Assembly: GCA_029821755.1 (NCBI GenBank) | Contig: JALGSV010000017.1 | Coordinates: 7,429 to 71,428, forward strand | Length of the DNA stretch: 64,000 nt | Direction of reading: 5' to 3' | Source of the DNA: Candidatus Zipacnadum vermilionense | Lineage (GTDB): Bacteria > Armatimonadota > Zipacnadia > Zipacnadales > Zipacnadaceae | Part shown: one piece after another, positions 12,865 to 26,206 of the stretch | Layout: every line of letters begins with the position of its first letter | Numbering within the stretch: position 1 is the stretch's first letter | Program-made: the position numbers and the translations under genes | Notes under the pieces: model-generated | Told to the model about the DNA's origin: nothing | Databases searched by the model: none | The model's input: the letters and a program-made list of their open reading frames with translations, nothing else

Positions 12865-14589
12865 GTGACTCAGCGTCTCAATGATGGTTCGATCGCAAAA
12901 TCATTCGTAATCACCCCGAAAGTTGATGAAAGGCGAGAGTTCCTCGAGATCTCTCGTGACTTCGGCAACCCGCTGGAACTGGTGCGGGAGGCCGTCAGCA
13001 ACTCATACGACGCCGGCGCGGAGGAGATACAGATCCTCTTCGACATGGTGCAGAGTGCCGGAGAGGACGTTCTCCGCATTTGCATCAACGACGACGGCGA
13101 GGGCATGGACGAAGGGGCATTGCAGGCTTTTTTTGACCTAGGAAACTCGCCGCGCAGAGAGCAGCGCCTCCAGGACCCGACCGTGATCCTGATCGGAGAG
13201 AAGGGGCACGGGACGAAGGTCTACTTCAACAGCGCCAGGATAGAAGTGACAACGTGCCGCGGGGCGGATCAAGACGAGTACAAGGCGGTCTTCGACAAGC
13301 CCTTCGCTCGCCTGAACGATTCCGAAAGCTCGCTGGAAGTGCAGGTCACGAGCAGACAGCCTCCGTCATGGTGGCACGGAACGAGAATCGAGATACTGAA
13401 CTACAACAAGAGCCGGCGCGGGCGTTTTTCTCACGCTCAGTTGCGGGACTATGTGCTGTGGTTCACTAGGTTCGGGTCTGTCCGAGACGAGCTCACCGAC
13501 GAACGGGACCCGACGGTCATGCGCTTGAAGGGCCTGGACCGCGAGGAACCCGAGAAGCTTGTGGCCGGTCACGTCTTTCCGAAGGAGAGCCCACCGACGA
13601 GTAAGCTGCTCGACGACTACATGGTCAAAGCGCCCGACCACTACGCCCGCCGCCTCAGGCGGCGGGGGCACTTGCCGGACTCTCCTGACATTGCTTACGA
13701 TGCGAGCTTCTGGGTGGAGGGGGACGGTATCAAGAGCGAGTACAACCCTATGATCCGCCGGCAAGGAAAACCGAGGCAAGAGGGTTCCTACCAGGTCCAG
13801 GAAAGGTACGGACTTTGGCTGTGCAAGGACTTCGTGCCTATTGAGGCTAGGAACGAGTGGATCATCACCAAGGGCCGTGAGTTCACAAAATTCCACGCAT
13901 TCTTCAACTGCCAGGCGTTCAACCTGACGGCAAACCGCGGGTCTGTGCAGAACACGCCGAGCGAGATTCTCGCCGAGGCCGAGAAGGTGTGCAAGGGCAT
14001 CTATCACGAGATTCTCGGGTCCACGGAGTGGACCGACCTGGAGTACCTCGACGAGCAGGCGGGAGCCTACACGACCTTGAAGAACGAACGGCGCGGGCTC
14101 GAGAGGCGGGTGAAGCACATAAAAAACGCACCGCGATGCGAGTACAAGGGGCGGACAATCCTAGCACCCAAGCAGGAGGCGGGGGTCTACTCGGTGTTCC
14201 TCATTCTGTCCATTCTCGAGCCGGACCTGTTCCCCTTCGAGGTGCTGGACTATGACACGCACCAGGGCATCGACATAGTCGCTCAGCCAAGAGGCGATAC
14301 GCCGATGACTGAGACCAAGCTCCGGTACGTGGAGTTCAAATATAGGTTAAGCGCCGGCTTCAACCACACCTTCGACAACCTGCACTCCATCGTTTGCTGG
14401 GAATTGGGACGCCAAGTCGATGAGGAGGTGCAGGACGCAGCCCAAAACCGACGTACACTCCAGAAAGCGCCACCTGGGGACGGTGAGCCAACGAAGTACT
14501 TCCTTGACGATCCAAAGAGTCCTCGTAAGATCGAGGTCCTCCTCCTACCTTTGTTCATCGATGAATGTTGCGGTATCAGATTCCAATAG
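12865..14589 (+). CDS. orphan GHKL-superfamily ATPase (HATPase_c_3-like Bergerat fold) with a long uncharacterised C-terminal region
   Basis: GTG start with GGAGGTGA upstream. The N-terminal ELVREAVSNSYDAGAEEIQI...ICINDDGEGMD matches the N-box and G1 of GHKL ATPases. The remaining ~400 aa carry no motif I recognise. GC is about 55%, against about 67% for the surrounding genome. Confidence 0.7.
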   Translation: MTQRLNDGSIAKSFVITPKVDERREFLEISRDFGNPLELVREAVSNSYDAGAEEIQILFDMVQSAGEDVLRICINDDGEGMDEGALQAFFDLGNSPRREQRLQDPTVILIGEKGHGTKVYFNSARIEVTTCRGADQDEYKAVFDKPFARLNDSESSLEVQVTSRQPPSWWHGTRIEILNYNKSRRGRFSHAQLRDYVLWFTRFGSVRDELTDERDPTVMRLKGLDREEPEKLVAGHVFPKESPPTSKLLDDYMVKAPDHYARRLRRRGHLPDSPDIAYDASFWVEGDGIKSEYNPMIRRQGKPRQEGSYQVQERYGLWLCKDFVPIEARNEWIITKGREFTKFHAFFNCQAFNLTANRGSVQNTPSEILAEAEKVCKGIYHEILGSTEWTDLEYLDEQAGAYTTLKNERRGLERRVKHIKNAPRCEYKGRTILAPKQEAGVYSVFLILSILEPDLFPFEVLDYDTHQGIDIVAQPRGDTPMTETKLRYVEFKYRLSAGFNHTFDNLHSIVCWELGRQVDEEVQDAAQNRRTLQKAPPGDGEPTKYFLDDPKSPRKIEVLLLPLFIDECCGIRFQ

Positions 14590-14655
14590 ACGCGCTGAGC
14601 GGGGCCGTTTCTCACCGGGAGCGCTCCAGGTACATTGACGCGAGGAGAAGAGCCA

Positions 14656-17223
14656 ATGTCGGACCGATACGATTTTCATGCCCTCGAGCCCAAGTGGCAG
14701 CAGCGCTGGGCGGAACGGAAGCTGTTTACTACCGTCACCTCCACGGAACGGCCCAAGTTCTACTACTTGGACATGTTCCCCTACCCCTCCGGCGACCTGC
14801 ACATGGGGCATGTGCGCAACTACATCATCGGCGATGTGATTGCGCGGCATCGGCACATGCAAGGGTTCAACGTCATGCACCCCATGGGCTGGGACGCCTT
14901 CGGCCTGCCCGCCGAGAACGCGGCCATCGAGCGCGGCATTCATCCCGCTATCTGGACCCAGGCTTCTGTGGTGAAGATGAAGGAGCAGTTCGACGCGCTG
15001 GGGATCACCTATGACTGGGCCCGCGAGGTCAACGCCGCCGCGCCGGACTACTACCAGTGGACCCAGTGGCTGTTCCTGCAGCTCTACCAGGCCGGTCTGG
15101 CCTACCGCGGGGAGGCCTCCGTGAACTGGTGCGGGTCGTGCAACACTGTGCTGGCGCGGGAGGAGCTGGAGGGCGCGGTCTGCGAGCGCTGCGGGACGCC
15201 GGTGGAGATCCGCCGCGTCCCGGGCCAGTGGTTCTTTGGCATCACCAAGTACGCCGAGCGCCTGCTGGAGGATATCGCCTTGCTGGGCAAGTGGCCCGAG
15301 CGGGTGCGCGTTATGCAGGAGAACTGGATCGGGCGCTCCACGGGCGTCCAGTTCCGGCTGGCGCTGGAGAACCGCCAAGGCCGGGCCGCCGGCCAGGAGA
15401 TCGAGGTCTTCACCACCCGCATCGACACCATCTATGGCATCACCTTCATGGCCGTGGCCGCCGAGCACCCCCTGGTCAAGGAACTGACCGCCGGGACCGA
15501 GCAGGAGGCGGCGGTGGCGGAGTTCGTGCGCCAGGCGGCGGTGGAGGCGGCTACCGACCGCGAGGCCGCGGCGGTGGAGAAGAAGGGGATGTTTCTGGGC
15601 GCCTACTGCCTGCACCCGCTGACCGGCGAGCGCGTGCCGATCTACGTGACCAACTACGTGCTGATGGAGTACGGCACCGGCGCGGTCATGGCCGTCCCCG
15701 CCCATGACCAGCGCGACCTGGAGTTCGCGCGGGAGTATGGGATTCCGGTGAAAGTGGTGATTCAACCGGAAGGGGAGAGCCTCGATCCCGCCACCATGAC
15801 CGAGGCGTACGTGGATCCCGGCGTCATGGTCAACTCCGGCTCCTACGACGGCATGACCAGCGCGCAGTTCACGGAGGCCATCGCTGACTTTCTGGAGGCT
15901 AACGGAATCGGGGAGCGGCGGGTCAACTACCGGCTGCACGACTGGCTGATCAGCCGCCAGCGCTACTGGGGCTGCCCCATCCCCATCCTCACCTGCGAGA
16001 ACTGTGGCGACGTGCCCGTGCCGGAGGAGCAGCTCCCGGTGCTGCTGCCGGAGCAGGCCGACTTCACCCCCACCGGGGAGTCGCCGCTGGCCCGCGTGCC
16101 CGAGTTCGTCAACACCACCTGCCCCCGCTGCGGCGGCCCGGCGAAACGCGAGACCGATACCATGACCACCTTTGTGGACTCGTCGTGGTACTACCTGCGC
16201 TACGCCAGCCCCGAGGCGACGGACGTGCCCTTCCGGCGTAGCGAGGCGGACTACTGGCTGCCGGTGGACAAATACGTGGGCGGGGTGGAGCACGCCGTAC
16301 GGCACCTGCTCTACTCGCGCTTCATCACCAAGGCGCTCCATGACCTGGGTCTCATTTCCTTCGTGGAGCCCTTCACGGAACTGTTCACGCAGGGGATGAT
16401 CTACAAAGACGGCGCGAAGATGAGCAAGTCCAAGGGCAACGTGGTGCGCCCCGAGGAGATCAGCGACCGGTACGGCACCGATACCGGGCGGACGTTCATC
16501 CTCTTCGTTGGTCCGCCCGACCAGGACGCGGAATGGAGCGACCGCGGCGTAGAGGGCTGCCACCGCTTCCTGCAGCGGGTGTGGCGGGCGGTGGTGGAGA
16601 ACGAGGAGCTGTGGCTGCCGGAGTGGGCGGAGGCGCTCTCTCCCGGTGGCGCCCGCGTCTCGCCCGCCGATCCTACCCCCCTGCCCCCCTCCCTAAAGGG
16701 AGGGGGGAGTGGAGGGGAGGCGTGCCGCGCCCTGCGCCGCAAGACCCACCAGACCATCGCCCGCGTCACCGACGATATCGCCAACATGCGTCTGAACACC
16801 ATGATCAGTGCCATGATGGAACTGACCAACGACCTGCTGCCCTTTGCGGCGCAGTTGACCGCCGAGGACACCGCCGGGCGGGCGGCGTTCAGCGAGGGTG
16901 TGGCTACGCTGCTGCACCTGCTCTCCCCGACCGCCCCGCACCTGTGCGACGAGCTGTGGGAGCGCCTGGGCCACGAGGGCAGCCTCTACGAGCAGCCCTG
17001 GCCGGAGTACGACGCGGCCATCGCCGCCGCCGAGAAGATCACCATCGTGGTGCAGATCAACGGCAAGGTCCGCGATCGTCTGGAGGTCCCTGCCGACACG
17101 CCGATGGAGAGGGTCCAGGAGCTGGCGCTGGCCCGCCCCACCATCCAGAAACAGGTGGAGGGCAAGACGATGCGGAAAGTGGTTGCGGTGGAGGGGAAGC
17201 TGGTGAACTTTGTGGTGGGGTAG
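14656..17223 (+). CDS. leuS: leucine--tRNA ligase
   Basis: The HMGH (HIGH-class) motif is present in YPSGDLHMGHVRNY, and KMSKS is present. The CP1 editing domain and a zinc-binding CxxC region are both present. GAGGAG sits 7 nt upstream of ATG 14656. Confidence 0.95.
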   Translation: MSDRYDFHALEPKWQQRWAERKLFTTVTSTERPKFYYLDMFPYPSGDLHMGHVRNYIIGDVIARHRHMQGFNVMHPMGWDAFGLPAENAAIERGIHPAIWTQASVVKMKEQFDALGITYDWAREVNAAAPDYYQWTQWLFLQLYQAGLAYRGEASVNWCGSCNTVLAREELEGAVCERCGTPVEIRRVPGQWFFGITKYAERLLEDIALLGKWPERVRVMQENWIGRSTGVQFRLALENRQGRAAGQEIEVFTTRIDTIYGITFMAVAAEHPLVKELTAGTEQEAAVAEFVRQAAVEAATDREAAAVEKKGMFLGAYCLHPLTGERVPIYVTNYVLMEYGTGAVMAVPAHDQRDLEFAREYGIPVKVVIQPEGESLDPATMTEAYVDPGVMVNSGSYDGMTSAQFTEAIADFLEANGIGERRVNYRLHDWLISRQRYWGCPIPILTCENCGDVPVPEEQLPVLLPEQADFTPTGESPLARVPEFVNTTCPRCGGPAKRETDTMTTFVDSSWYYLRYASPEATDVPFRRSEADYWLPVDKYVGGVEHAVRHLLYSRFITKALHDLGLISFVEPFTELFTQGMIYKDGAKMSKSKGNVVRPEEISDRYGTDTGRTFILFVGPPDQDAEWSDRGVEGCHRFLQRVWRAVVENEELWLPEWAEALSPGGARVSPADPTPLPPSLKGGGSGGEACRALRRKTHQTIARVTDDIANMRLNTMISAMMELTNDLLPFAAQLTAEDTAGRAAFSEGVATLLHLLSPTAPHLCDELWERLGHEGSLYEQPWPEYDAAIAAAEKITIVVQINGKVRDRLEVPADTPMERVQELALARPTIQKQVEGKTMRKVVAVEGKLVNFVVG
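16672..16720. repeat. GC-rich hairpin repeat, family 1, copy inserted in-frame inside leuS (CCCCCCTCCC-TAAA-GGGAGGGGGG core)
   Basis: The core is a perfect 10-bp stem with a TAAA loop. The extended arms are CCTACCCCCCTGCCCCCCTCCC and GGGAGGGGGGAGTGGAGGGGAGG. The element encodes ...PTPLPPSLKGGGSGGEA... within a variable linker of LeuS before the anticodon-binding domain. The same family occurs intergenically at 7203, 42266 and 43717. Confidence 0.6.
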
Positions 17224-17237
17224 GGGGCAAAGAAGGT
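17183..17237. repeat. direct repeat A (leuS 3' end), left boundary of the R-M cassette
   Basis: The sequence TTGCGGTGGAGGGGAAGCTGGTGAACTTTGTGGTGGGGTAGGGGGCAAAGAAGGT is about 95% identical to 19233-19284. Confidence 0.8.
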
Positions 17238-17240
17238 ACC

Positions 17241-18302
17241 ATGGCAGTCCAACATGCGCTCTTCTCTGAGGTCTTGCCCGCCTTTCCTTCGACGCGTTAC
17301 CAAGGGAGCAAGTCTAAACTGGTGGATTGGATCTGGCGCCAGATCGCCGACCTCAGTTTTGACACGTGCCTTGACGCGTTCGGAGGAACGGGGACAGTTG
17401 CCTATAGATTCAAGCAGGCAGGCAAGTCGGTCACTTACAACGACTCGCTGCGCTTCAACTACTACATCGGACTTGCGCTCATCGAGAACAGCCAAGTTCG
17501 GCTTTCGCCCGACGAGGTCGAAGGGCTCCTGCACAGGCATCCCGGTATCGAGTACCCCAGCTTTATCACCGACACCTTCCACGATGTCTATTTTACTGAT
17601 GCTGAGAACGCGTGGCTCGATCAAACCATCACCAACCTTCGTCGTCTAGATGACGAGTGCAAATTCGCCCTTGCCTCCTTCGCCCTGTGCCAGGCTTGCA
17701 TCATCAAGCGACCCTACAACCTCTTCCACCGAAAGAATCTGTACATGCGACTGTCGAAGGTGCAAAGGTCCTTCGGGAACAAGGTGACATGGGATCGGCC
17801 TTTCGAGGACTGGTTTCGCGTCTTCGTCGCTGAGGCCAATGAGGCGGTATTCGACAACGGGCGACTCAACCACGCCGCTAACTTCGACGCGGTGGAGATC
17901 GAGCAGCCATACGACCTGGTCTACGTCGACCCGCCGTATGTTTCCAGCCGCGGCACTGCCGTGGATTACCGGGACTTCTATCACTTCCTGGAAGGCTTGA
18001 CAATGTATGACGAGTGGCCAGAGCACATAGACTGGCACTCGAAGCACCGACGACTGGTCCCCAAACGGACGCCGTGGGCCGATAAGCGTGCCATTCTGAG
18101 CGCCTTTGACCACCTCTTCGCGAGATTCCAGGACAGCATCATCGTTGTCTCGTACCGGACCGACGGCATTCCGTCCGAGCAGGAACTTGCCTCGGTTCTT
18201 CATCGCTATAAGAAGAATGTTCTCGTGGAACACTACGGCCACTACAAGTACGTGCTATCCAGGAAAGGGGACTCCAAGGAGATGTTGCTCGTAGGGACAT
18301 GA
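17241..18302 (+). CDS. N6-adenine DNA methyltransferase, D12 class (Dam / M.EcoRV family)
   Basis: Motif I is LDAFGGTG. The motif YQGSKSK matches the Dam (Y/W)xGxK motif. Catalytic motif IV is DPPY, in DLVYVDPPY. GC is about 55%. The gene overlaps the downstream endonuclease gene by ATGA. Confidence 0.85.
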   Translation: MAVQHALFSEVLPAFPSTRYQGSKSKLVDWIWRQIADLSFDTCLDAFGGTGTVAYRFKQAGKSVTYNDSLRFNYYIGLALIENSQVRLSPDEVEGLLHRHPGIEYPSFITDTFHDVYFTDAENAWLDQTITNLRRLDDECKFALASFALCQACIIKRPYNLFHRKNLYMRLSKVQRSFGNKVTWDRPFEDWFRVFVAEANEAVFDNGRLNHAANFDAVEIEQPYDLVYVDPPYVSSRGTAVDYRDFYHFLEGLTMYDEWPEHIDWHSKHRRLVPKRTPWADKRAILSAFDHLFARFQDSIIVVSYRTDGIPSEQELASVLHRYKKNVLVEHYGHYKYVLSRKGDSKEMLLVGT

Positions 18303-19120
18303 GTCCGCATACAGGAGGCAGAATGATTGCCGAACAGTTTCGGAGCCAATTGATGGACTACTGCGCGAGGTTCAGGGAGGCCCTATCAACCGAAGCTGGC
18401 GACTGGGCCGTGAAGGGCTTCATAGATGTGTACCGCAACATCTACACCATCTCCGCAGACACCAAGGTCATCTCGAAGATCATCGAACTGATGCTCTTTC
18501 CCCTCATTTCCCTTTTCGCCGAGGAGAACGGCTACAAGATGGTTCTTTCCGAGTATCAGAACCACTACCCTGACGTGACTTTCGTGGCCCAAGACGGAAC
18601 CAAGATCGCCCTAGATCTAAAGAGTACCTACCGGACGGATGAGAACACTGTGAACGGTTTTACGCTTGGGTGCTTTACTGGCTACTTCCGTGACCGGGAG
18701 AGCGAGAAGAATATCACTTTTCCTTACGGGGATTACGCGTGTCACCTCGTGCTGGGTGTCATTTACTCCCGAACCGAGGAGTACCTGGATGAGCGTCATG
18801 TCTATCCCATCGAGGACCTACCGAACATTCTCTCGGTCGTCAAAGATTTCGAGTTCCTGGTGCAGGGGAAATGGTGCATCGCCGGAACGCGACCGGGTAG
18901 TGGGAATACCAAGAACATCGGTTCAGTGAATCGGGTCGCTGATCTGACTGGCGGCACAGGCCCCTTTGCACGACTCGGGGAGGAAGTCTTCGACGATTAC
19001 TGGACCAATTACCTCACGAAGGACATGGCGCGGGCCATTGACTCCAAGGTGCCATACCGGAATCTGCAGGAGTATCTCGCCTGGCGGAAACCCAGCAAGC
19101 GGGCGAGGTCACCCCGATAA
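18299..19120 (+). CDS. type II restriction endonuclease, EcoRV family (PD-(D/E)xK)
   Basis: There is block-by-block similarity to EcoRV. SADTKVISKIIELMLFPLISLFAEENGY aligns with GSDTKVLSTIFELFSRPIINKIAEKHGY. QNHYPDVTF...KIALDLKSTY aligns with QQNHYPDFTL...KIAIDIKTTY, which carries the catalytic D/D/K. GFTLGCFTGY, KWCIAGTRPGSGNTKNIGS and DDYWTNY align with KFTLGGYTSF, KWVIAGDLAGSGNTTNIGS and LDYWRNY. GC is about 52%. Confidence 0.85.
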   Translation: MSPHTGGRMIAEQFRSQLMDYCARFREALSTEAGDWAVKGFIDVYRNIYTISADTKVISKIIELMLFPLISLFAEENGYKMVLSEYQNHYPDVTFVAQDGTKIALDLKSTYRTDENTVNGFTLGCFTGYFRDRESEKNITFPYGDYACHLVLGVIYSRTEEYLDERHVYPIEDLPNILSVVKDFEFLVQGKWCIAGTRPGSGNTKNIGSVNRVADLTGGTGPFARLGEEVFDDYWTNYLTKDMARAIDSKVPYRNLQEYLAWRKPSKRARSPR

Positions 19121-19168
19121 CGCCATGCAGCTACAGCACTAGCTGTTGGCGGAAAGCCCGTGCAAGCC

Positions 19169-19273
19169 ATGAAGACCCTCTTCACCGGCCAGAAGAACCA
19201 CGACTGGAAGCGATCGACGCCCTTTGGCGAGATTGCGGTGGAGGGGAAGCTGGTTAACTTTGTGGTGGGGTAG
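19169..19273 (+). other. chimeric junction remnant: 63 bp homologous to the thuA-like 5' end, fused to a second copy of the leuS 3' end (direct repeat B, 19233-19284)
   Basis: It reads MKTLFTGQKNHDWKRSTPFGE-IAVEGKLVNFVVG*. The first part is about 78% identical to the start of the gene at 19412 (MQTIKTLLLTGQNNHDWQRSTPF). The second part duplicates the leuS C-terminus. Confidence 0.7.
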
Positions 19274-19411
19274 GGGCAGAAGGTGAGGCTAGGGTGACCC
19301 AGGCCGGGGTCGTGCAGGGAGACACTCCCCCGCGGCCTCAAGAAGCAGCCGGACGGGGGTTGAACACGCCCTAAACGCAACTGGCTCACACCATTTCCGA
19401 AGGAACCAAAC

Positions 19412-20125
19412 ATGCAAACTATCAAGACCCTCCTGCTCACGGGCCAGAACAACCACGACTGGCAGCGCTCGACGCCCTTTGTGCGGGACTTGCTGGAGGC
19501 CACCGGGAAGTTCTCGGTGGACGTGGCTGACGACCCCAGCCGGACGCTGTCGTGCTCGGCGGAATTGGCGCAATATAGCCTGATCTTCTCCGACTACAAC
19601 GGGCCGGAGTGGGACGCCCTGGCTCAGGAGAACTTCGCCGCCGTGGTCGGGAACGGGACCGGGCTGGTGATCTTGCACGCCGCGGACAACACCTTCCCCG
19701 GCTGGGTGGAGTACGAGAAGATGGGCGGGATCATGTGGCGGGAAGGCGCGGGGCACGGGGCCTTCCACGAGTTCCCCGTGACCATCCGCGACCACGAGCA
19801 CCCCATCACCCGCGGCGTGGGGGACTTCCTGATCTGGGATGAGCTGTACGCCAACCTCAGCCACATGCACGGGGTGCCGTACGAGGTGCTGGCCACGGGC
19901 TTCTCCGCCACCGAATCCGGTGGTACGGGTAAAGACGAGCCGGTGATGGTCACTACCCAGTACGGCCAGGGCCGCGTGTTCCACATGGTGCTGGGGCACG
20001 TCTGGCCGGTAGGCGAGGATCCCACCTACAAGGGCTCGACGATGATCACCTTCGAGAACGCCGGCTTCCAGACAACGCTCGTGCGAGGGTGCGAGTGGGC
20101 GGCGACGGGTGAGGTGGCGGACTGA
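19412..20125 (+). CDS. ThuA-like (trehalose-utilisation / class-I glutamine-amidotransferase-like) protein
   Basis: 237 aa. The ThuA family pattern is LLLTGQNNHDW...FSDYNGPEW...GLVILHAADNTFPGW...GHGAFHEFP. Confidence 0.65.
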   Translation: MQTIKTLLLTGQNNHDWQRSTPFVRDLLEATGKFSVDVADDPSRTLSCSAELAQYSLIFSDYNGPEWDALAQENFAAVVGNGTGLVILHAADNTFPGWVEYEKMGGIMWREGAGHGAFHEFPVTIRDHEHPITRGVGDFLIWDELYANLSHMHGVPYEVLATGFSATESGGTGKDEPVMVTTQYGQGRVFHMVLGHVWPVGEDPTYKGSTMITFENAGFQTTLVRGCEWAATGEVAD

Positions 20126-20603
20126 GCGCGAGCACGGCCGGCGCCATCCTTCCCGGTACAAGCTGCGCCAGGGAGGGGGGCTGGCAGTGGGCATGGGGGA
20201 GATACTGGACGGGAAGCCGATGGAGCAACTAGGCGGGATGGCGAAGCGCTGGCGCCAGGGCCTGGCCCGTCCCCCGATTCCCCGGGGGCTGTAGTACCTC
20301 ATGGGGAACTGGGGCTGGAAACGTGAGGCAAAGAAGCACGGCGCCCGGCGGCGGCTCTATCGCTGCCCCTTGCCATACTCTGACGGAAGAGGTGTCCTGG
20401 GAGTAGGTCCTCGCCTTCCACGAGGCAATGGAGGAGTACAGAGACTATCCGCATCCCGGAGGGGCCGCATAGGTGGCTCACGCGGAAGGCGCGAGACGCA
20501 AGTTCGCACGCGAACTCAGCCTATGCGGCTCACGCTCGCCCCGAAGCACCGACCAGGCGTTGCTCCAACTAACGCGCGCTTCGCGCGCTTGAGGTGATTA
20601 CCC

Positions 20604-21614
20604 ATGCCCGGCAATCCCACTATCGTCTTCGCCGCCCCCTGCGAGGTCGTCATCGAGGATCGTGACGTCCCCTCCCCCGGCCCCGGTGAGTTGCTCATCC
20701 GCACCCGGCTGACCCTCATCAGCACCGGCACCGAGCTAACCATCCTGGAGGGCAAGTACCCGCCCGGCTCCGCCTGGGCGCGCTACGGCAAGTTCCCCTT
20801 CGCCGCCGGCTACAACAACATCGGGGAGGTCGTCGGGGTCGGACCGGAAGTAGCCGAGGAGTGGATTGGCCGCCGGATTGCCACCCAGGGGAACCACGCA
20901 CAGTACCTGTGCCTGCCGCCCGCCCTCGCGCGGCCGATCCGGCCGGAGGTTGCCGACGAACAGGCGGTCTTCTTCACCATCGCCGAGATCGTGATGAACG
21001 GCATGCGCCGCGGCGGGGTGACCTGGGGGGAGGCCGCGGTGGTCAATGGCCTGGGGCTGTTGGGGCAGCTCGCAGTGCGCCTCTGCCGCCTGGCCGCAGC
21101 ACGCCCGGTCTTCGCCGTGGACCCCGCCGGCCCCCGGCGGGCGTGTCTGCCCGAGGATCCCGGCATAGTACCCGTCAACCCGCTGGAGCAGGACCTCGCG
21201 GAGCTCGTGGCGACCATGACCCGCGGGCGCAAGGCCGACGTGGTTTTTGAGGTCACTGGCAACCCCGACCTGATTCCGGGCCAGGTCTCCGCCTTGCGTC
21301 GCCAGGGGCGATTCGTGATACTCAGCAGTCCCAAGGGCCCCTCGCTGTTCGACTTCCACGACCTGTGCAACAGCCCCAGCTTCACCATCATCGGGGCGCA
21401 CAACGGCTCGCACCCGAAGTGCGAAGAAGGCGATAATCCCTGGACCATGCTCCGCCACGCGGAGCTGTTCTTCGACCTGCTGGCCCAGGGCGCCCTGGAC
21501 ATGACGCCGCTCATCAGCCACCGGGCCCCCTACACCGACGCTCCCATGCTCTACCAGATGCTGGTGGAGGACCGCTCTCAGGCGATGGGGGTGCTGCTGC
21601 GCTGGGGGGAGTAG
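20604..21614 (+). CDS. medium-chain (zinc-type) dehydrogenase/reductase family oxidoreductase
   Basis: A GroES-like N-domain (GPGELLIRTRLTLISTGTE) is followed by a Rossmann domain (VVNGLGLLGQLAV). It is paralogous to the gene at 57184-58200 (about 50% aa identity by eye). Confidence 0.7.
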   Translation: MPGNPTIVFAAPCEVVIEDRDVPSPGPGELLIRTRLTLISTGTELTILEGKYPPGSAWARYGKFPFAAGYNNIGEVVGVGPEVAEEWIGRRIATQGNHAQYLCLPPALARPIRPEVADEQAVFFTIAEIVMNGMRRGGVTWGEAAVVNGLGLLGQLAVRLCRLAAARPVFAVDPAGPRRACLPEDPGIVPVNPLEQDLAELVATMTRGRKADVVFEVTGNPDLIPGQVSALRRQGRFVILSSPKGPSLFDFHDLCNSPSFTIIGAHNGSHPKCEEGDNPWTMLRHAELFFDLLAQGALDMTPLISHRAPYTDAPMLYQMLVEDRSQAMGVLLRWGE

Positions 21615-21647
21615 GCACGCGCAGGTGCAGAGGACTGGACCGCTCCC

Positions 21648-22274
21648 ATGCTCAAAGACCTCACCACCGTCCAAAAGGCCGTCCTCGTCACCCTGGTGGC
21701 AGTGATCGTGCTCTCGGCGGCGGCCGTGGCCTTTCGCCGGGGCCAGTCGCTGCCACCGGACGAGACCGCACCTACTGCCCGCGCTGCCTCGCCCGCGGCC
21801 GCGCGCCCCGTGACCGTGCAGGTCACCGGCGCGGTGCTGCATCCGGGCGTATACATCTTGCAAAATGGTGACCGAGCCGGCGAGGCCATCGAGGCGGCCG
21901 GAGGAGTGACGTCGGACGCGGACGCCGCGGGGGTCAACTTCGCCCGGCGTCTGCGCGACGGTCAACACCTGCAGATCCCCCACCGGCGTTCGACGCCTCC
22001 CGCCTCCCCAAGGGCCCCGGTCTCCACCTCTTCTACGTCCCGCCCGCCGCGCCCGGCGCCGCCTCCCCCTTCCGCCGCGCCCTCTCCGGTCAACCTCAAC
22101 GCCGCCGACGCGGCGCAGTTGGCCCGCCTCCCCGGCCTGTCCCGCGCCCTGGCCGAACGTCTCGTCGCCTATCGCACCGTCCACGGTCAGTTCCGGCGTC
22201 TCGAGGAAACGCTCCTGGTGAAGGGTATGACGCCGGCGATTCTGGAGCAGGCGCGGCCATATCTGAGCCTCTGA
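21648..22274 (+). CDS. comEA: competence protein ComEA (SLBB + tandem helix-hairpin-helix)
   Basis: N-terminal TM segment. SLBB domain: VTVQVTGAVLHPGVYILQNGDRAGEAIEAAGG. C-terminal HhH: VNLNAADAAQLARLPGLSRALAERLVAYRTVHGQFRRLEE. Confidence 0.75.
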   Translation: MLKDLTTVQKAVLVTLVAVIVLSAAAVAFRRGQSLPPDETAPTARAASPAAARPVTVQVTGAVLHPGVYILQNGDRAGEAIEAAGGVTSDADAAGVNFARRLRDGQHLQIPHRRSTPPASPRAPVSTSSTSRPPRPAPPPPSAAPSPVNLNAADAAQLARLPGLSRALAERLVAYRTVHGQFRRLEETLLVKGMTPAILEQARPYLSL

Positions 22275-22299
22275 GCGATGCGCCCACCGCGGCAACGAC

Positions 22300-22327
22300 G
22301 AGAGCCTCCCTACTGAGGGAGGCTCTC
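22300..22327. terminator. bidirectional hairpin terminator between convergent genes (GAGAGCCTCCC-TACT-GAGGGAGGCTCTC)
   Basis: 11-13 bp GC-rich stem with a 4-nt loop, flanked by comEA (+) and the gene at 22357 (-). Confidence 0.6.
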
Positions 22328-22356
22328 GACTCTCTCTGCTACTATTCCTCTTCGCC

Positions 22357-24519
22357 CTACCTTCCCACGCCCGACGACACCGCCGCCAGCAGGGCCTCCG
22401 CGGTCAGCGGATTGGGCGACTCCACTACCCACAGCGCTTCCTGCCCGCCCAGCAGCCCGGCGGTGGCCGACTCTCCTAGCGGGACGCGCGGCATCTCCAC
22501 CTGCCGCATGTAAGTGCGCACGGTTGCCCCCGCCGGGATGGCCAGGAGTTGCTGCTGGAAGTGCCGCGACAGGTTCACCACCCAGACGAGCGCTTTACGT
22601 CCGCCCGGCTCCACCAGCGCCGCCGCGGCTCCGTGGGTGAGCGCCTTCACCTGCACCTCGCCCTCCGCGGTCGCCGGGCGGATGATCGTCGCCACGTAGG
22701 CATAGTCCCCGGCCTGCCAGGGCGCGCCCCGCTCCAGCGTCGGGTACCAGGAGGCGCGGGGAGCGGGCTCGTCCTGGCCCTCGGCAAAGTAGAAGCCGCC
22801 CTGTTCCTCCAGGCGTTCCAGAGTCACCGCCAAGTCGCCGTAGTTGAAGGCCCAATACCGGTCGGTGCGCTCGGCCTGGTCCAGCGGGCGCTCCTGAGGC
22901 GACAGGCGCCAGCGCATCCGCGCTACGTCTTGTCCCTCGACTGCGCCCCCGTCCGCATGGCAGTGGAGCGCGGTCAGACCGATCAGATGGTCCCGCCAGA
23001 CCGCCCAGTGCTGCACCTGGTCCCAGTCGGCGTACTGATTGGCCCCGCCCTCGCCGCCCAAGAAGGGCATATCGCCCCAGTACGGCACGCACAGCCGCGA
23101 TACGCAACTGACCGCCGCCAGCCCCTGGGCCTCCGTGAAGGTCACGGTCGGGTCCCAGTCCACGCAGGCGAAGCGCGTGCGGTAGCCGGCGGGTTGATTC
23201 TCCGCCGCCTCGCGGAAGTCGCGCATGACCTCCAGATACACTCCGTCCACCGCCGCCCCCAACGGGGCCAGCGGCTCGCGGGGGTCGCACAGGTACGCCC
23301 CGGCCAGGCTGTCGTTCATCTGCCGGGTGCCCACCGCCGCGGTGAAATCATCCCAGTGGGAGCGTACGCCCCGGAAGGAGCCGTCCACCATCACCCGCCG
23401 GTCCGGCAGCGGGGTAGGTTCAGGCAGCGTGTTCCTCTCCAGCAGCCGCAACGCAGCGGCATCGAAGGTGGTCAAGTGGTAGTTGTACCAGTGCCAGCCG
23501 GTGTCGGAGAAGGTGGGCACGCGGTTCTCCACATTGTCCGCCTGGAGCAGCACGGCCCGATCTGCCACCGTCCGGTTGGCTCCGTCGCCAGTGGAGGCCG
23601 CGATCATCACCCCTACGCCGGGGACGAGGAAGTTCCAGAAGGTGTGCTTGACCCAAGACTGCTCGGCGTCGGTCTCCCAGCCGCTGCGGTGCTGGACGGC
23701 GGGGAAGTAGGGGGCCATTCGCTTGAGCATGTCCAGCGCGTAGTCGTCGCCGGTTACGTCCCAGTACAGGGCGACCGACTTGACGACCATGTGCTGGTAG
23801 CCGTGCTGGGGCTGGGAGCGGCAGAAGTACGCCATGCCCCCGCCCGGGTACAGCCAGTCGCCATACCGCCGGATCGAGAGCGCCGCCTCCTGCTTGTACT
23901 TCTCGTCGCCGGTAACCTTCCACGCCGCAGCCAGGCCGGAGAGGTAGTACATCTCCGGGTTGGCGTACTGTCCGGCCAGCGCGCTGGGCTGGTAGGGGCC
24001 GAAGTGCTGGGAGATCATGGTGTGGTCGGCGATCTTGACGACGGCTTCCCGCCAGGCCTGCGCGCGCGCCGCGTCCACGTCCCCCGTCTCCAGCCACGAC
24101 AGGGCCGCCCAGGCGTACGATTGGAGCATGAACTGCGCCCCTAGGCCGCCATCGTCCCAGTTGCCATCAGGCTTGATCTTGGGCAGCGCATCCATCATGG
24201 CGAAAGCCCGCTGGCGCAGGACCTCGTTCTTGTGAAAACGACTCCAGGGGTACTGGTAGGCCGCGGCGCCGATCCAGGCGACATTGGCGTCTTCGGCGTT
24301 GCCGTAGATGACGATCTTGGCCGGATCGGTCTCCTCCGTATTCACCCGGTTAAGCCCCTCGGCCGCCCGGAGCTGGATGACGTGCCGCATGAAGGGCTCC
24401 ACCAGCCGCGGGCAGGGGCCGAAGTCGGTAGGGAGTTTGGGGATAGGTTCGGCGGCAAGAGGCAGGGCCGCCAACGCCAGCAAACTCAGGCACAGTGCAA
24501 CGTAGGTCAGCCAAGTCAT
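22357..24519 (-). CDS. secreted hypothetical protein (720 aa), possible polysaccharide lyase / glycoside hydrolase-like
   Basis: Signal peptide MTWLTYVALCLSLLALAALPLAA. The protein is large and Trp/Tyr-rich. I recognise no diagnostic catalytic motif. The function call comes from the neighbourhood only. Confidence 0.45.
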   Translation of the reverse strand: MTWLTYVALCLSLLALAALPLAAEPIPKLPTDFGPCPRLVEPFMRHVIQLRAAEGLNRVNTEETDPAKIVIYGNAEDANVAWIGAAAYQYPWSRFHKNEVLRQRAFAMMDALPKIKPDGNWDDGGLGAQFMLQSYAWAALSWLETGDVDAARAQAWREAVVKIADHTMISQHFGPYQPSALAGQYANPEMYYLSGLAAAWKVTGDEKYKQEAALSIRRYGDWLYPGGGMAYFCRSQPQHGYQHMVVKSVALYWDVTGDDYALDMLKRMAPYFPAVQHRSGWETDAEQSWVKHTFWNFLVPGVGVMIAASTGDGANRTVADRAVLLQADNVENRVPTFSDTGWHWYNYHLTTFDAAALRLLERNTLPEPTPLPDRRVMVDGSFRGVRSHWDDFTAAVGTRQMNDSLAGAYLCDPREPLAPLGAAVDGVYLEVMRDFREAAENQPAGYRTRFACVDWDPTVTFTEAQGLAAVSCVSRLCVPYWGDMPFLGGEGGANQYADWDQVQHWAVWRDHLIGLTALHCHADGGAVEGQDVARMRWRLSPQERPLDQAERTDRYWAFNYGDLAVTLERLEEQGGFYFAEGQDEPAPRASWYPTLERGAPWQAGDYAYVATIIRPATAEGEVQVKALTHGAAAALVEPGGRKALVWVVNLSRHFQQQLLAIPAGATVRTYMRQVEMPRVPLGESATAGLLGGQEALWVVESPNPLTAEALLAAVSSGVGR

Positions 24520-24581
24520 GTAGAAGCCTCCCGGCTAGTAGTATGCGAACGAGGGGGCGGCCACACGCGCAGCGCTGCCCT

Positions 24582-25166
24582 CTATTCCTGGGGGCCTTGC
24601 GCCTGTTCGTCCGCGACCATGTGGGCTATCCTAACTCTTTCCCCATAGTCGGGCATATCTCGCGCGTCCCGCCCGGCTACTGCCCTCCAGAGGGCCGTCG
24701 CCTCTGGTCCCTGACCAAGCTCTGCCGCCGCCAGGTACTCCTCGAGCCCGCCCTCGGGGTTGTGCCAGCGAAACGCCAGCATCTCCGAAAGATGCGCGTA
24801 GAATTCCTCCGTCTTCTCCTCGTCGCCGCCGTAGAAGACGATGTGCGCGTGGGCGACCTCATGTACCAGGACGTACGGGCGCACTGGCGCCTGAAGGATG
24901 ATCAGCGGCGGTTCGCCCAATTCGGCCACTGCGCGCTGATAGCTCTGAACCTCCTTGGCGGGGTCCCCGGAGCGTCCAAGGTACTTCCCGAGAATGCACT
25001 CTTCGTCCGGCTCGCAGTACCGGAGAAAGCTTTCGCCCTCCAACTCGAACACGGGGGGGTCGACCCACCTGGTGTTGGGCGACGGCCATATCGCCGGCCA
25101 CATCGCCGCCAGGAACTCCATCGAGAAGTGCTCCTCGAGCAGGCTGCGCAGGTCTCTGATAGCCAT
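24582..25166 (-). CDS. hypothetical zincin-like protein with an HExxH motif (HEVAHAH)
   Basis: 194 aa. The segment VLVHEVAHAHIVFYGG is consistent with a minimal metallopeptidase-like fold. I cannot place the family. Confidence 0.4.
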   Translation of the reverse strand: MAIRDLRSLLEEHFSMEFLAAMWPAIWPSPNTRWVDPPVFELEGESFLRYCEPDEECILGKYLGRSGDPAKEVQSYQRAVAELGEPPLIILQAPVRPYVLVHEVAHAHIVFYGGDEEKTEEFYAHLSEMLAFRWHNPEGGLEEYLAAAELGQGPEATALWRAVAGRDARDMPDYGERVRIAHMVADEQAQGPQE

Positions 25167-25208
25167 CGTCCTCCTATCAAAGCGGGCGCCCGGAACTCAG
25201 ACCGCTCA

Positions 25209-25742
25209 CTAGTGGAGCGCAATTCTGGGCACGAGGGCAGCGGCCGCGCAACCTGCCGCGAAGAAGAGCACCGCTACGAAGGGAACCGCGCAAACCCAAC
25301 GCGCAAGGGATTCCAGCGGCACGGTTCTTCCCCCAAAGTCGAACGTGGGTTGCTGGCCGAACGCGACCATCCCGTACGCCATGGTCAGCGGTATCGCGCA
25401 TAGCACGATCGCGACAAACACGGCCCGCGTGCCGCACTCTCCAGTCAGGAGAGCCCCCAGTACCACGACCACAAGACCACAAAGAACAAGTGTTCCGATG
25501 GCTGCCAGAACTGGTGGCCAGACAAAGGACCAGTCGCGCTGCGCCTCCTCGCCAATCTCGGCCAGCTTGCGGCGAAGGAGTTCGAGTTCGCGGCGCGACG
25601 CCCAAGCATGACACGATGCGAAGCAAGCGATCCCGATGAAGACCCCAACGGCTACCCCCACGAAAAGCAGTATCACCGGCAGGCCCAAAAACCCGGCGAA
25701 GAGCCAGAAGATGCCCTCGAAGAAGTCCAGAATGACGTGCAA
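25209..25742 (-). CDS. hypothetical integral membrane protein (4-5 TM)
   Basis: 177 aa with multiple hydrophobic helices. It has the same orientation as the flanking small genes. Confidence 0.45.
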   Translation of the reverse strand: MHVILDFFEGIFWLFAGFLGLPVILLFVGVAVGVFIGIACFASCHAWASRRELELLRRKLAEIGEEAQRDWSFVWPPVLAAIGTLVLCGLVVVVLGALLTGECGTRAVFVAIVLCAIPLTMAYGMVAFGQQPTFDFGGRTVPLESLARWVCAVPFVAVLFFAAGCAAAALVPRIALH

Positions 25743-25870
25743 CGTGTTGGCTCCTTCATGTCGCTAGATTAGGGCTTCAGCCCTTGGCCGGTTGCGTCCG
25801 TCTGGGGCTCTTGCGCCGCACGCCACAAAGGATCGCCTCCACGGACGGCGGGATGAAGCCCTTGCACAAG

Positions 25871-26206
25871 CTACGTCCAACGACCCCTGAATAGCCCGCG
25901 GCTCAGCAGCACGGTCAAGAGCGCGGATAGCCCCACGCCTGCCATCCAACCGATGGCACCCAGAACGACCGCTCCAATGAAGAGGCCAAGCAGCCAACCA
26001 AGGACGGCACCGGTGATCGCTCCCAGGACCCCGCCGACTCGCGTAGCAGTCGCGAACCTCCGCCCGGGAGGATATCGGAAGCCACATCTTCTGCAGTCAT
26101 AGCCGTTGGCCGTCGCCTCCATAGACAAGAGGCACCGGGGACATACCCCCCTCATCGCCAACTCCAGCCGTTCCTGGTCAGATTCAGGGAGTTCCGGGGA
26201 CACCAC
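25871..26206 (-). CDS. zinc-ribbon (CPRC...CRRC) protein with C-terminal TM helices
   Basis: 111 aa. It has a CxxC-x15-CxxC motif followed by a Gly/Ala/Leu-rich membrane segment. Confidence 0.45.
   Translation of the reverse strand: MVSPELPESDQERLELAMRGVCPRCLLSMEATANGYDCRRCGFRYPPGRRFATATRVGGVLGAITGAVLGWLLGLFIGAVVLGAIGWMAGVGLSALLTVLLSRGLFRGRWT

Follow-up and report, generated by a model that had tools for sequence, protein, structure and literature searches.

The locus considered here lies in a 64,000-nt stretch of the genome of Candidatus Zipacnadum vermilionense (contig JALGSV010000017.1), hereafter the window, in whose coordinates all positions are given. Between leuS, encoding leucyl-tRNA synthetase, and thuA, encoding a ThuA-domain protein, it carries a two-gene restriction-modification (R-M) cassette of the EcoRV family, composed of a DNA methyltransferase gene (M) followed by an endonuclease gene (R), together with a duplicated leuS 3' end and a 5' fragment of a second thuA allele (thuA'); all features of the locus are on the + strand (Table 1). 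The locus is made of two head-to-tail versions of one chromosomal segment. The first (Unit 1, 17183-19232) comprises the leuS 3' end, a spacer, M, R, a second spacer and the thuA 5' fragment, and the second (Unit 2, from 19233 onward) comprises the leuS 3' end, a spacer, a relic of about 55 nt of an M gene, about 65 nt of further sequence and an intact thuA. A sequence-only reading of the same DNA had recognized an EcoRV-family R-M pair behind leuS, as well as the order leuS3'-M-R-thuA'-leuS3'-thuA; the pair has all the features then described, with coordinates that needed almost no adjustment, and the order is real.

Table 1. Features of the leuS-thuA locus in window coordinates (L001 and L004 are comparison contigs from related lineages).
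Feature	Position	Strand	Remarks
leuS (leucyl-tRNA synthetase)	14635-17223	+	Open reading frame (ORF); Pfam tRNA-synt_1_2, tRNA-synt_1, Anticodon_1; upstream anchor
Direct repeat, copy A	17183-17237	+	Final 38 nt of leuS, its stop codon and the following 14 nt
M gene, D12-class (alpha-type) N6-adenine DNA methyltransferase	17241-18302	+	353 aa, intact
R gene, EcoRV-family type IIP restriction endonuclease	18323-19120	+	265 aa, intact
R-thuA' spacer	19121-19159	+	39 nt; 27/39 positions match the R-thuA spacer of L001
thuA', 5' fragment of a diverged thuA allele	19160-19232	+	About codons 1-26, one codon deleted, ATG->GTG
Putative chimeric small ORF across thuA' and the leuS 3' end of copy B	19160-19273	+	37 aa (GTG 19160) or 34 aa (ATG 19169)
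Apparent illegitimate joint at microhomology	19233-19244	+	TTGCGGTGGAGG in leuS (17183-17194) vs TTGCTGGAGG in thuA (19490-19499)
Direct repeat, copy B	19233-19284	+	Non-functional second leuS 3' end and 11 nt past its stop
Relic of the leuS-M spacer and first ~16 codons of an L001-type M	19285-19346	+	M-start equivalent at 19291
Remaining intergenic region 5' of thuA	19347-19411	+	Weak resemblance of the last ~25-40 nt to sequence upstream of thuA in L004
thuA (ThuA-domain protein), intact	19412-20125	+	Pfam PF06283, 1e-27; downstream anchor

The endonuclease is a full-length member of the family to which EcoRV of the E. coli plasmid pLG13 belongs. Its residues 29-264 correspond to positions 2-244 of the 244 positions of the Pfam Endonuc-EcoRV profile (PF09233; 3.6e-99, 331.6 bits, for a cut-off of 25), and it matches the EcoRV chains of the PDB at 2e-41 and EcoRV of pLG13 at 2e-47, with 38% identity. 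In the alignment to the EcoRV structures, the equivalents of the catalytic residues E45, D74, D90 and K92 are kept, in the pairings iiELm/ifELf, nhyPDvt/nhyPDft and iaLDlKst/iaIDiKtt (R/EcoRV); the Pfam match and the PDB and pLG13 alignments thus bear out the likeness to EcoRV, catalytic residues included, that had been drawn from the sequence alone. The recognition loops YQNHYPD and GSGNTKN of R pair with QQNHYPD and GSGNTTN of EcoRV, T187->K being the sole change, and the DNA-recognition residues Q69, N70, N185, T186 and N188 of EcoRV are kept. The conserved catalytic residues, the Q69/N70 loop and the GSGNT.N loop make GATATC specificity likely, and the target of the R-M pair is probably GATATC, the specificity that the sequence-only reading had proposed to test. 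The R start at 18323 is preceded by an AGGAGG ribosome-binding site and gives the length found in homologues, leaving a gap of 20 nt between M and R; a possible alternative start further 5', the ATG at 18299, overlaps the stop codon of M.

The methyltransferase matches Pfam PF02086 (5.3e-17, 62.8 bits, for a cut-off of 22) and the PADLOC MTase_II model (6.3e-63), while no NCBIfam model matches either M or R. Its motif I (DAFGGTG, of the form FxGxG), near residue 45, is N-terminal to motif IV (VDPPY), near residue 229. The enzyme is of the same broad D12 class as the methyltransferase of the pLG13 system, but it is not an orthologue of M.EcoRV, with which BLASTP aligns two short motif segments (E = 1e-4 and 0.002). 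Its earlier assignment to a Dam/M.EcoRV class consequently stands at the level of the D12 class and goes too far for M.EcoRV itself, which shares only the catalytic motifs. The two systems also differ in their layout: in the pLG13 operon, M is divergent from C-R and a helix-turn-helix regulator precedes R, whereas M and R of the window are on one strand with no controller, and the window system is chromosomal where that of pLG13 is plasmid-borne.

The base composition of the cassette is foreign. GC content is 55.8% in M, 54.4% in R and 55.3% over the cassette, against 66.3% for the window, in keeping with the 52-55% and ~67% announced earlier, and third-codon-position GC is 73% in M and 71% in R, against ~90% in leuS and thuA. 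No integrase, transposase or recombinase was found in or beside the cassette in the ORF map or by Pfam and PADLOC; apart from frame-shifted overlaps, the sense-strand ORFs of the insert are M, R and the small chimeric ORF only. By its gene content and conserved motifs, the cassette is predicted to be a working type IIP R-M module, with M preceding R and no controller gene. The start of M is 17 nt past the stop codon of leuS, a scan for consensus promoters and terminators between leuS and thuA returned none, and the fold of the intergenic RNA is not unusual (z = -1.1). Given the 17-nt spacing and the lack of a consensus promoter or terminator, M and R are probably transcribed by read-through from the essential leuS gene.

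The leuS-thuA junction was compared with that of relatives, available as short metagenome contigs from lineages that are 12-20% diverged at the nucleotide level. Two of them, L001 and L002, carry the R-M pair in a scar-free arrangement, leuS - 17 nt - M - R - 38 nt - thuA, in which thuA runs on normally beyond the point where thuA' of the window is cut off. These contigs encode the closest R (86% amino-acid identity) and present the configuration that had been predicted for a donor, that is, an R-M pair between leuS and thuA; their R-thuA spacer is homologous to the one between R and thuA' in the window. The sequence-only reading had also looked to related genomes for an empty leuS-thuA site, and three more distant relatives (L003, L071 and L078) have one: leuS and thuA are 23-28 nt apart, with a single leuS 3' end each, in sequences that are 15-25% diverged. 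As Unit 2 of the window carries the M relic, its immediate precursor was probably not empty. Of these, L003 encodes a LeuS and a ThuA with, respectively, 83% and 80% amino-acid identity to those of the window. In other relatives, the site is filled differently. L076 has a zinc-ribbon/DUF4145-like gene (668-1075) 18 nt after leuS, and L004, which has the closest thuA (86% amino-acid identity), has a different ORF (1-341) with an R-x4-H (HEPN-like) motif that ends 12 nt before thuA and is possibly the same kind of gene as that of L076. In L081-L085, a sulfatase gene whose GC content is native lies between leuS and thuA (L081:580-1989); in L081, the thuA start codon has apparently changed from ATG to ACG. 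Since the junction is occupied, empty or differently filled depending on the lineage, it is a variable hot spot.

Beyond these contigs, a scan of GTDB genomes with ThuA gave nothing closer than 65% identity, and a metagenome scan with M returned only modules that are 56-69% identical and in unrelated contexts. R homologues are numerous in metagenomes (4,351 at E <= 1e-10), many of them 65-72% identical and from several phyla. The presence of the two-gene module in unrelated contexts, for example beside an IS110 transposase, indicates that it behaves as a mobile module. The next-closest module, whose R is 72% identical (L072:2715-3968 and L074:3905-5158), lies in a context devoid of both leuS and thuA, at ~500 nt from a transposase gene of the IS110 family, so that the module travels with insertion sequences as well.

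Within the window, the 41-nt end of leuS has two matches where none is expected, with 40 of 41 nt identical between the coding parts of the two copies (17183-17223 and 19233-19273). The ungapped alignment of a repeat finder extends this to 43/44 positions (17183-17226 and 19233-19276), and a gapped alignment up to 17237 and 19284 matches at 51 of 55 positions with two small indels, which makes the former description of a repeat of about 52 bp and about 95% identity a fair one. The repeats start 2,050 bp apart and contain uninterrupted identical runs of 22 and 18 nt. The repeat finder also pairs 19177-19226 with 19432-19481, at 88%, i.e., parts of thuA' and thuA. The thuA' fragment begins exactly where the thuA start codon falls, lacks one codon and is identical to the thuA of the window at 58 of 70 positions (83%). 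A diverged thuA fragment had been proposed at this place; it is indeed present, with an identity somewhat above the 78% then claimed. Relatives' thuA genes match it at 50-56 of 70 positions, and its one-codon deletion is clean and absent from every thuA compared. The 60 nt 5' of thuA', made of the last 21 nt of R and the spacer, were aligned with those of L001 anchored on the right, giving a score of 22 for a null of -9.0 +/- 3.5 that none of 1000 shuffles reached.

thuA' gives way to copy B at TTGC (19233-19236), where leuS and thuA have 4 identical bases in common, or 10 of the 12 positions of TTGC(GG)TGGAGG if an indel is allowed. The microhomology at the joint is short, as expected for an illegitimate join. 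The chimeric ORF that results has the translation MKTLFTGQKNHDWKRSTPFGEIAVEGKLVNFVVG; the ribosome-binding site 5' of it is degraded relative to L001, and the ORF is probably a by-product of the fusion.

Between the end of the chimeric ORF and the start of thuA, the intergenic region is 138 nt long, and the part of it directly after copy B is an M-gene relic, a new finding beyond the earlier note. When anchored on the left at the repeat, this part aligns with the leuS-M spacer and the M start of L001 with a score of 8 (null -10.6 +/- 3.6; 0/2000 dinucleotide shuffles), and the M-coding part only, of ~55 nt, still scores 6 (null -8.75 +/- 3.5; 0/5000 shuffles). The same anchored test detects no significant similarity between the relic and the 5' end of the window's own M, from which it differs at 34 of 56 positions. 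In a three-way alignment, the relic agrees with L001 at 11 sites and the window M with L001 at 12, while the relic and the window M agree at 3. The stretch A-[IVY]-Q...FP.TRYQGSK of M is common to homologues in unrelated contexts and is therefore part of the module rather than native spacer; the empty sites of the relatives have nothing comparable to the relic. The succession of copy B and an M relic implies that the partner allele formerly carried an R-M pair and that the target site was probably not empty, contrary to the empty target site of the sequence-only model, where the ~16 codons of an L001-type M behind copy B have no place. Unit 2 thus appears to be an L001-type allele that was occupied and has decayed, and not an empty site.

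The remainder of the intergenic region is less informative. Its comparison with the R 3' end and the following spacer was not significant (117/1000 shuffles), and no R relic can be claimed. Anchored on the right, the 60 nt 5' of thuA resemble those of L004 marginally (19/1000 shuffles reach the score) and do not significantly resemble the 60 nt 5' of thuA' (117/1000 shuffles); a local scan of the intergenic region against the upstream ORF of L004 was not significant either. The sequences upstream of the two thuA copies would thus differ in type, that of thuA' being clearly L001-like and that of thuA only marginally L004-like.

The age of the R-M pair at this site can be estimated from its divergence from L001. 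Nucleotide identity between the window and L001 is 83% for the leuS 3' end, 88% for M, 83% for R and 80% for the thuA 5' end, and M and R have the same lengths in both. M, with 88% amino-acid identity, shows a synonymous divergence (dS) of 0.41 and a ratio of nonsynonymous to synonymous divergence (dN/dS) of 0.15; the corresponding values are 0.94 and 0.08 for R, 0.48 and 0.27 for the leuS 3' end, and 0.67 and 0.28 for the thuA 5' end. To judge from these values, both R-M alleles, that of the window and that of L001, are under purifying selection and about as old as the split of the two host lineages; the system has been at this site in this group of organisms for long and did not arrive recently from a distant source. 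As for the original insertion on the L001 side, a candidate 4-nt target duplication, ACAG, is too short to be told from chance. Along the cassette (17241-19120 vs L001:415-2294), dS is uneven, with 0.62 for the N-terminal half of M, 0.24 for its C-terminal half and 0.94 for R, and the first 12 codons of M are nearly unrelated between the two alleles (MAVQHALFSEVL vs MAIQQRIITETL). Recombination within the cassette could account for both the uneven dS and the divergent M start. Avoidance of GATATC was considered as another sign of long residence and rejected: the window has 15 GATATC sites for 5.7 +/- 2.5 expected, a number that 2 of 100 shuffles reach, with ten sites in the first 16.8 kb and none in 16780-26070, a segment that includes the cassette.

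The structure is best explained, with a probability that we put at roughly 70%, by the head-to-tail joining of two diverged alleles of the locus through two exchanges, one illegitimate and the other homologous. The two alleles would have met in one cell, the first with an intact R-M pair beside its own thuA and the second having lost an older, L001-type R-M pair long before. The illegitimate exchange would have occurred at TTGC(GG)TGGAGG, joining thuA at approximately codon 27 to the final 41 nt of leuS, and the homologous exchange either within the leuS 3' end, whose copies are nearly identical, or at a more distant point of a flank. The incoming DNA may have been a circle (Campbell-type integration) or linear (homology-facilitated illegitimate recombination), and the resident allele may have been either the R-M-bearing one or the one bearing the relic and thuA; the sequence is compatible with each order of events and each form of incoming DNA. 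Divergence along the locus is what argues for different alleles. The repeat copies have 1 difference in 41 positions and thuA' and thuA have 12 in 70 (Fisher p = 0.03 vs the repeat), even though, from one lineage to another, the leuS 3' end is in general no better conserved than the thuA 5' end; segments so unequally diverged point to a junction of different alleles and not to one duplication on the spot.

Several observations weigh against the joining of two alleles. The repeat and thuA' differ only modestly in how far they have diverged (p = 0.03), and repeated gene conversion between the repeat copies could keep them alike. The M relic amounts to ~55 nt and was detected by the position-anchored test only, and no significant match came out when the 126-nt intergenic region was scanned locally and without bias against the complete cassettes of the window and L001, the best being a chance 22-mer inside R. 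GATATC is not avoided, which gives no support to long-term restriction pressure. In addition, a same-species genome in the pre-event state was not found among the metagenome and genome searches, and the structure is known from the assembled sequence alone.

The allele-joining event might also be one episode of a longer cycle. In this more tentative and, on present evidence, doubtful extension, leuS3'-M-R-thuA' would be a self-propagating package that excises as a circle via its repeats and re-enters related genomes at the leuS-thuA hot spot, the R-M pair carrying its own homology arm in the form of the conserved leuS 3' end. thuA' is 71-83% identical to every known thuA, while thuA genes are 77-90% identical among themselves, in a comparison of small numbers. 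That thuA' is the most diverged of these sequences and yet the repeat is near perfect is a hint of a passenger fragment carried for long, next to a repeat renewed at each integration. If true, this package would back up, at the sequence level, the steps of "release and reinfection" that are as yet unproven in the virus-like life cycle proposed for R-M systems by the Kobayashi group, and would provide a mechanism for the "insertion with long target duplication" considered below.

Among the alternatives, the model of the sequence-only reading, in which a single crossover brings a circular leuS3'-M-R-thuA5' from a related donor into an empty leuS-thuA site, at the 3' end of leuS, accounts for the topology of the locus. 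A donor-type allele exists in L001 and L002, relatives with empty sites are known, and the identical runs of the repeat, of 22 and 18 nt, are close to the RecA minimum. The model is nonetheless unlikely as it stands, as copy B is followed by the L001-type spacer and M relic and the intergenic distance of the window far exceeds the 23-28 nt of the relatives' empty sites. As to the circle, the product has the topology that it would yield; no feature of the sequence requires it, and linear DNA or the reverse scenario gives the same product.

Tandem duplication on the spot would also account for the head-to-tail arrangement of the units, for the joint at a microhomology and for the M relic that follows copy B, if a 2-kb unit had been duplicated by slippage between the thuA 5' and leuS 3' microhomologies and the second R-M copy had later been mostly deleted. 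Amplification of repeat-flanked R-M units is documented (cited in PMC2853133), and a deletion that left a relic is found nearby, at 20317-20466. Under a single duplication, it is difficult to see why the repeat has diverged by 2%, thuA' by 17% and the M relic by ~60% from the window M, why the relic has 11 states in common with L001 and no more than 3 with the window M, and why thuA' is preceded by L001-like sequence and thuA by L004-like sequence; this scenario is thus quite improbable. An assembly or amplification artefact, in which strain variants with and without the R-M pair were wrongly joined in a metagenome assembly or in a chimeric read, is very improbable: the source is apparently an uncultured organism with a single 80-kb contig on record and both allele types occur in nature, but the 4 identical bases at the joint of thuA' and leuS3' are far under any assembler k-mer, which makes a mis-join unlikely, thuA' has substitutions of its own in addition to its clean one-codon deletion, and a strain mix would yield a hybrid thuA and not a duplicated leuS end. 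Site-specific integration of an integrase island was rejected, as there is no recombinase gene and the fusion of the right repeat with thuA' would be left unexplained.

R-M units that have no mobility gene and are flanked by direct repeats of more than 30 bp are known as "insertions with long target duplication" (Furuta et al., 2010; PMC2853133), a described class, so that the scar is not unusual for a type II R-M system as had been thought. In this class, which covers all R-M types and many phyla and whose mechanism is unresolved, the repeats often overlap the 3' end of a gene (PMC2853133); an R-M insertion of H. influenzae, for instance, has 46-bp repeats that overlap the 3' end of the neighboring gene (PMC2853133). 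The window shares with this class (Nobusato et al., 2000; PMC2853133) a ~2-kb insert made of R and M, the lack of an integrase or transposase, repeats of more than 30 bp at a gene 3' end and a GC content below that of the host, and its more distant relatives include some with empty sites. As in the definition used by Furuta et al. (2010), R and M are inside an insert of less than 20 kb that has no other mobile-element genes and a repeat longer than 30 bp. The window differs in that its right repeat is fused to a carried-along thuA 5' fragment and followed by an older M relic, and in that its "target duplication" would be the overlap of two head-to-tail alleles instead of the duplication of a virgin site; furthermore, the genomes with empty sites are distant and not of the same species.

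Homology-facilitated illegitimate recombination (PMC6382021) offers another parallel. Illegitimate joins are formed at microhomologies of 3-10 bp in this process, and the minimum homology for RecA is 25-35 bp (PMC6382021). One homologous end, with the other at a 3-10 bp microhomology, allows foreign DNA to enter beside a conserved anchor and is common to this process and to the window, where the anchor would be the 41-55 nt of leuS 3' identity or leuS itself; the product is compatible, the process being deduced from the product only. In contrast to classic cases, which usually delete recipient DNA, the window has a duplication of ~55 bp.

How R-M genes move with neither transposase nor integrase is unresolved, and the long-target-duplication class has been described from its end products only. 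The locus described here retains more history than usual, in the form of the thuA' piece, the microhomology joint, the M relic and the alternative states of the site in relatives; thuA', the joint and the relic are better explained by allelic recombination at a hot spot than by insertion into a virgin site. Under the allele-joining reading, recombination between diverged alleles, steered by the housekeeping genes on either side, can restore an R-M pair to a chromosomal hot spot from which it had earlier disappeared. The locus would in this respect be a worked example that leaves the known picture of R-M systems unchanged.

Two further features lie in the flanks of the locus. Upstream, 46 nt 5' of leuS, a 574-aa ORF (12865-14589, +) encodes a protein with a GHKL/HATPase_c_3 domain; it also weakly matches the BbrUII/HgiDII family of restriction enzymes (3e-11, well short of the threshold for that family). 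The ORF has a GC content of 58%, and of 76% at third positions, for 67% and 90% in leuS; leuS may thus have foreign, defence-like genes on either side. L003 has TldD/PmbA genes as the upstream neighbors of leuS, and a tblastn search with the L003 TldD found no match in the window. Downstream, the 478-nt spacer between thuA and the ADH gene (20126-20603) contains the relic already mentioned (20317-20466), which is of the C-terminal part of a uroporphyrinogen decarboxylase (URO-D) gene, with 73-84% amino-acid identity by tblastn to residues ~261-312 of the L003 and L080 URO-D proteins (E ~1e-18). The URO-D gene lies between thuA and ADH in L003 and L080, whereas it is wholly gone in L004, where the spacer is 72 nt; in the window, it has been largely deleted.

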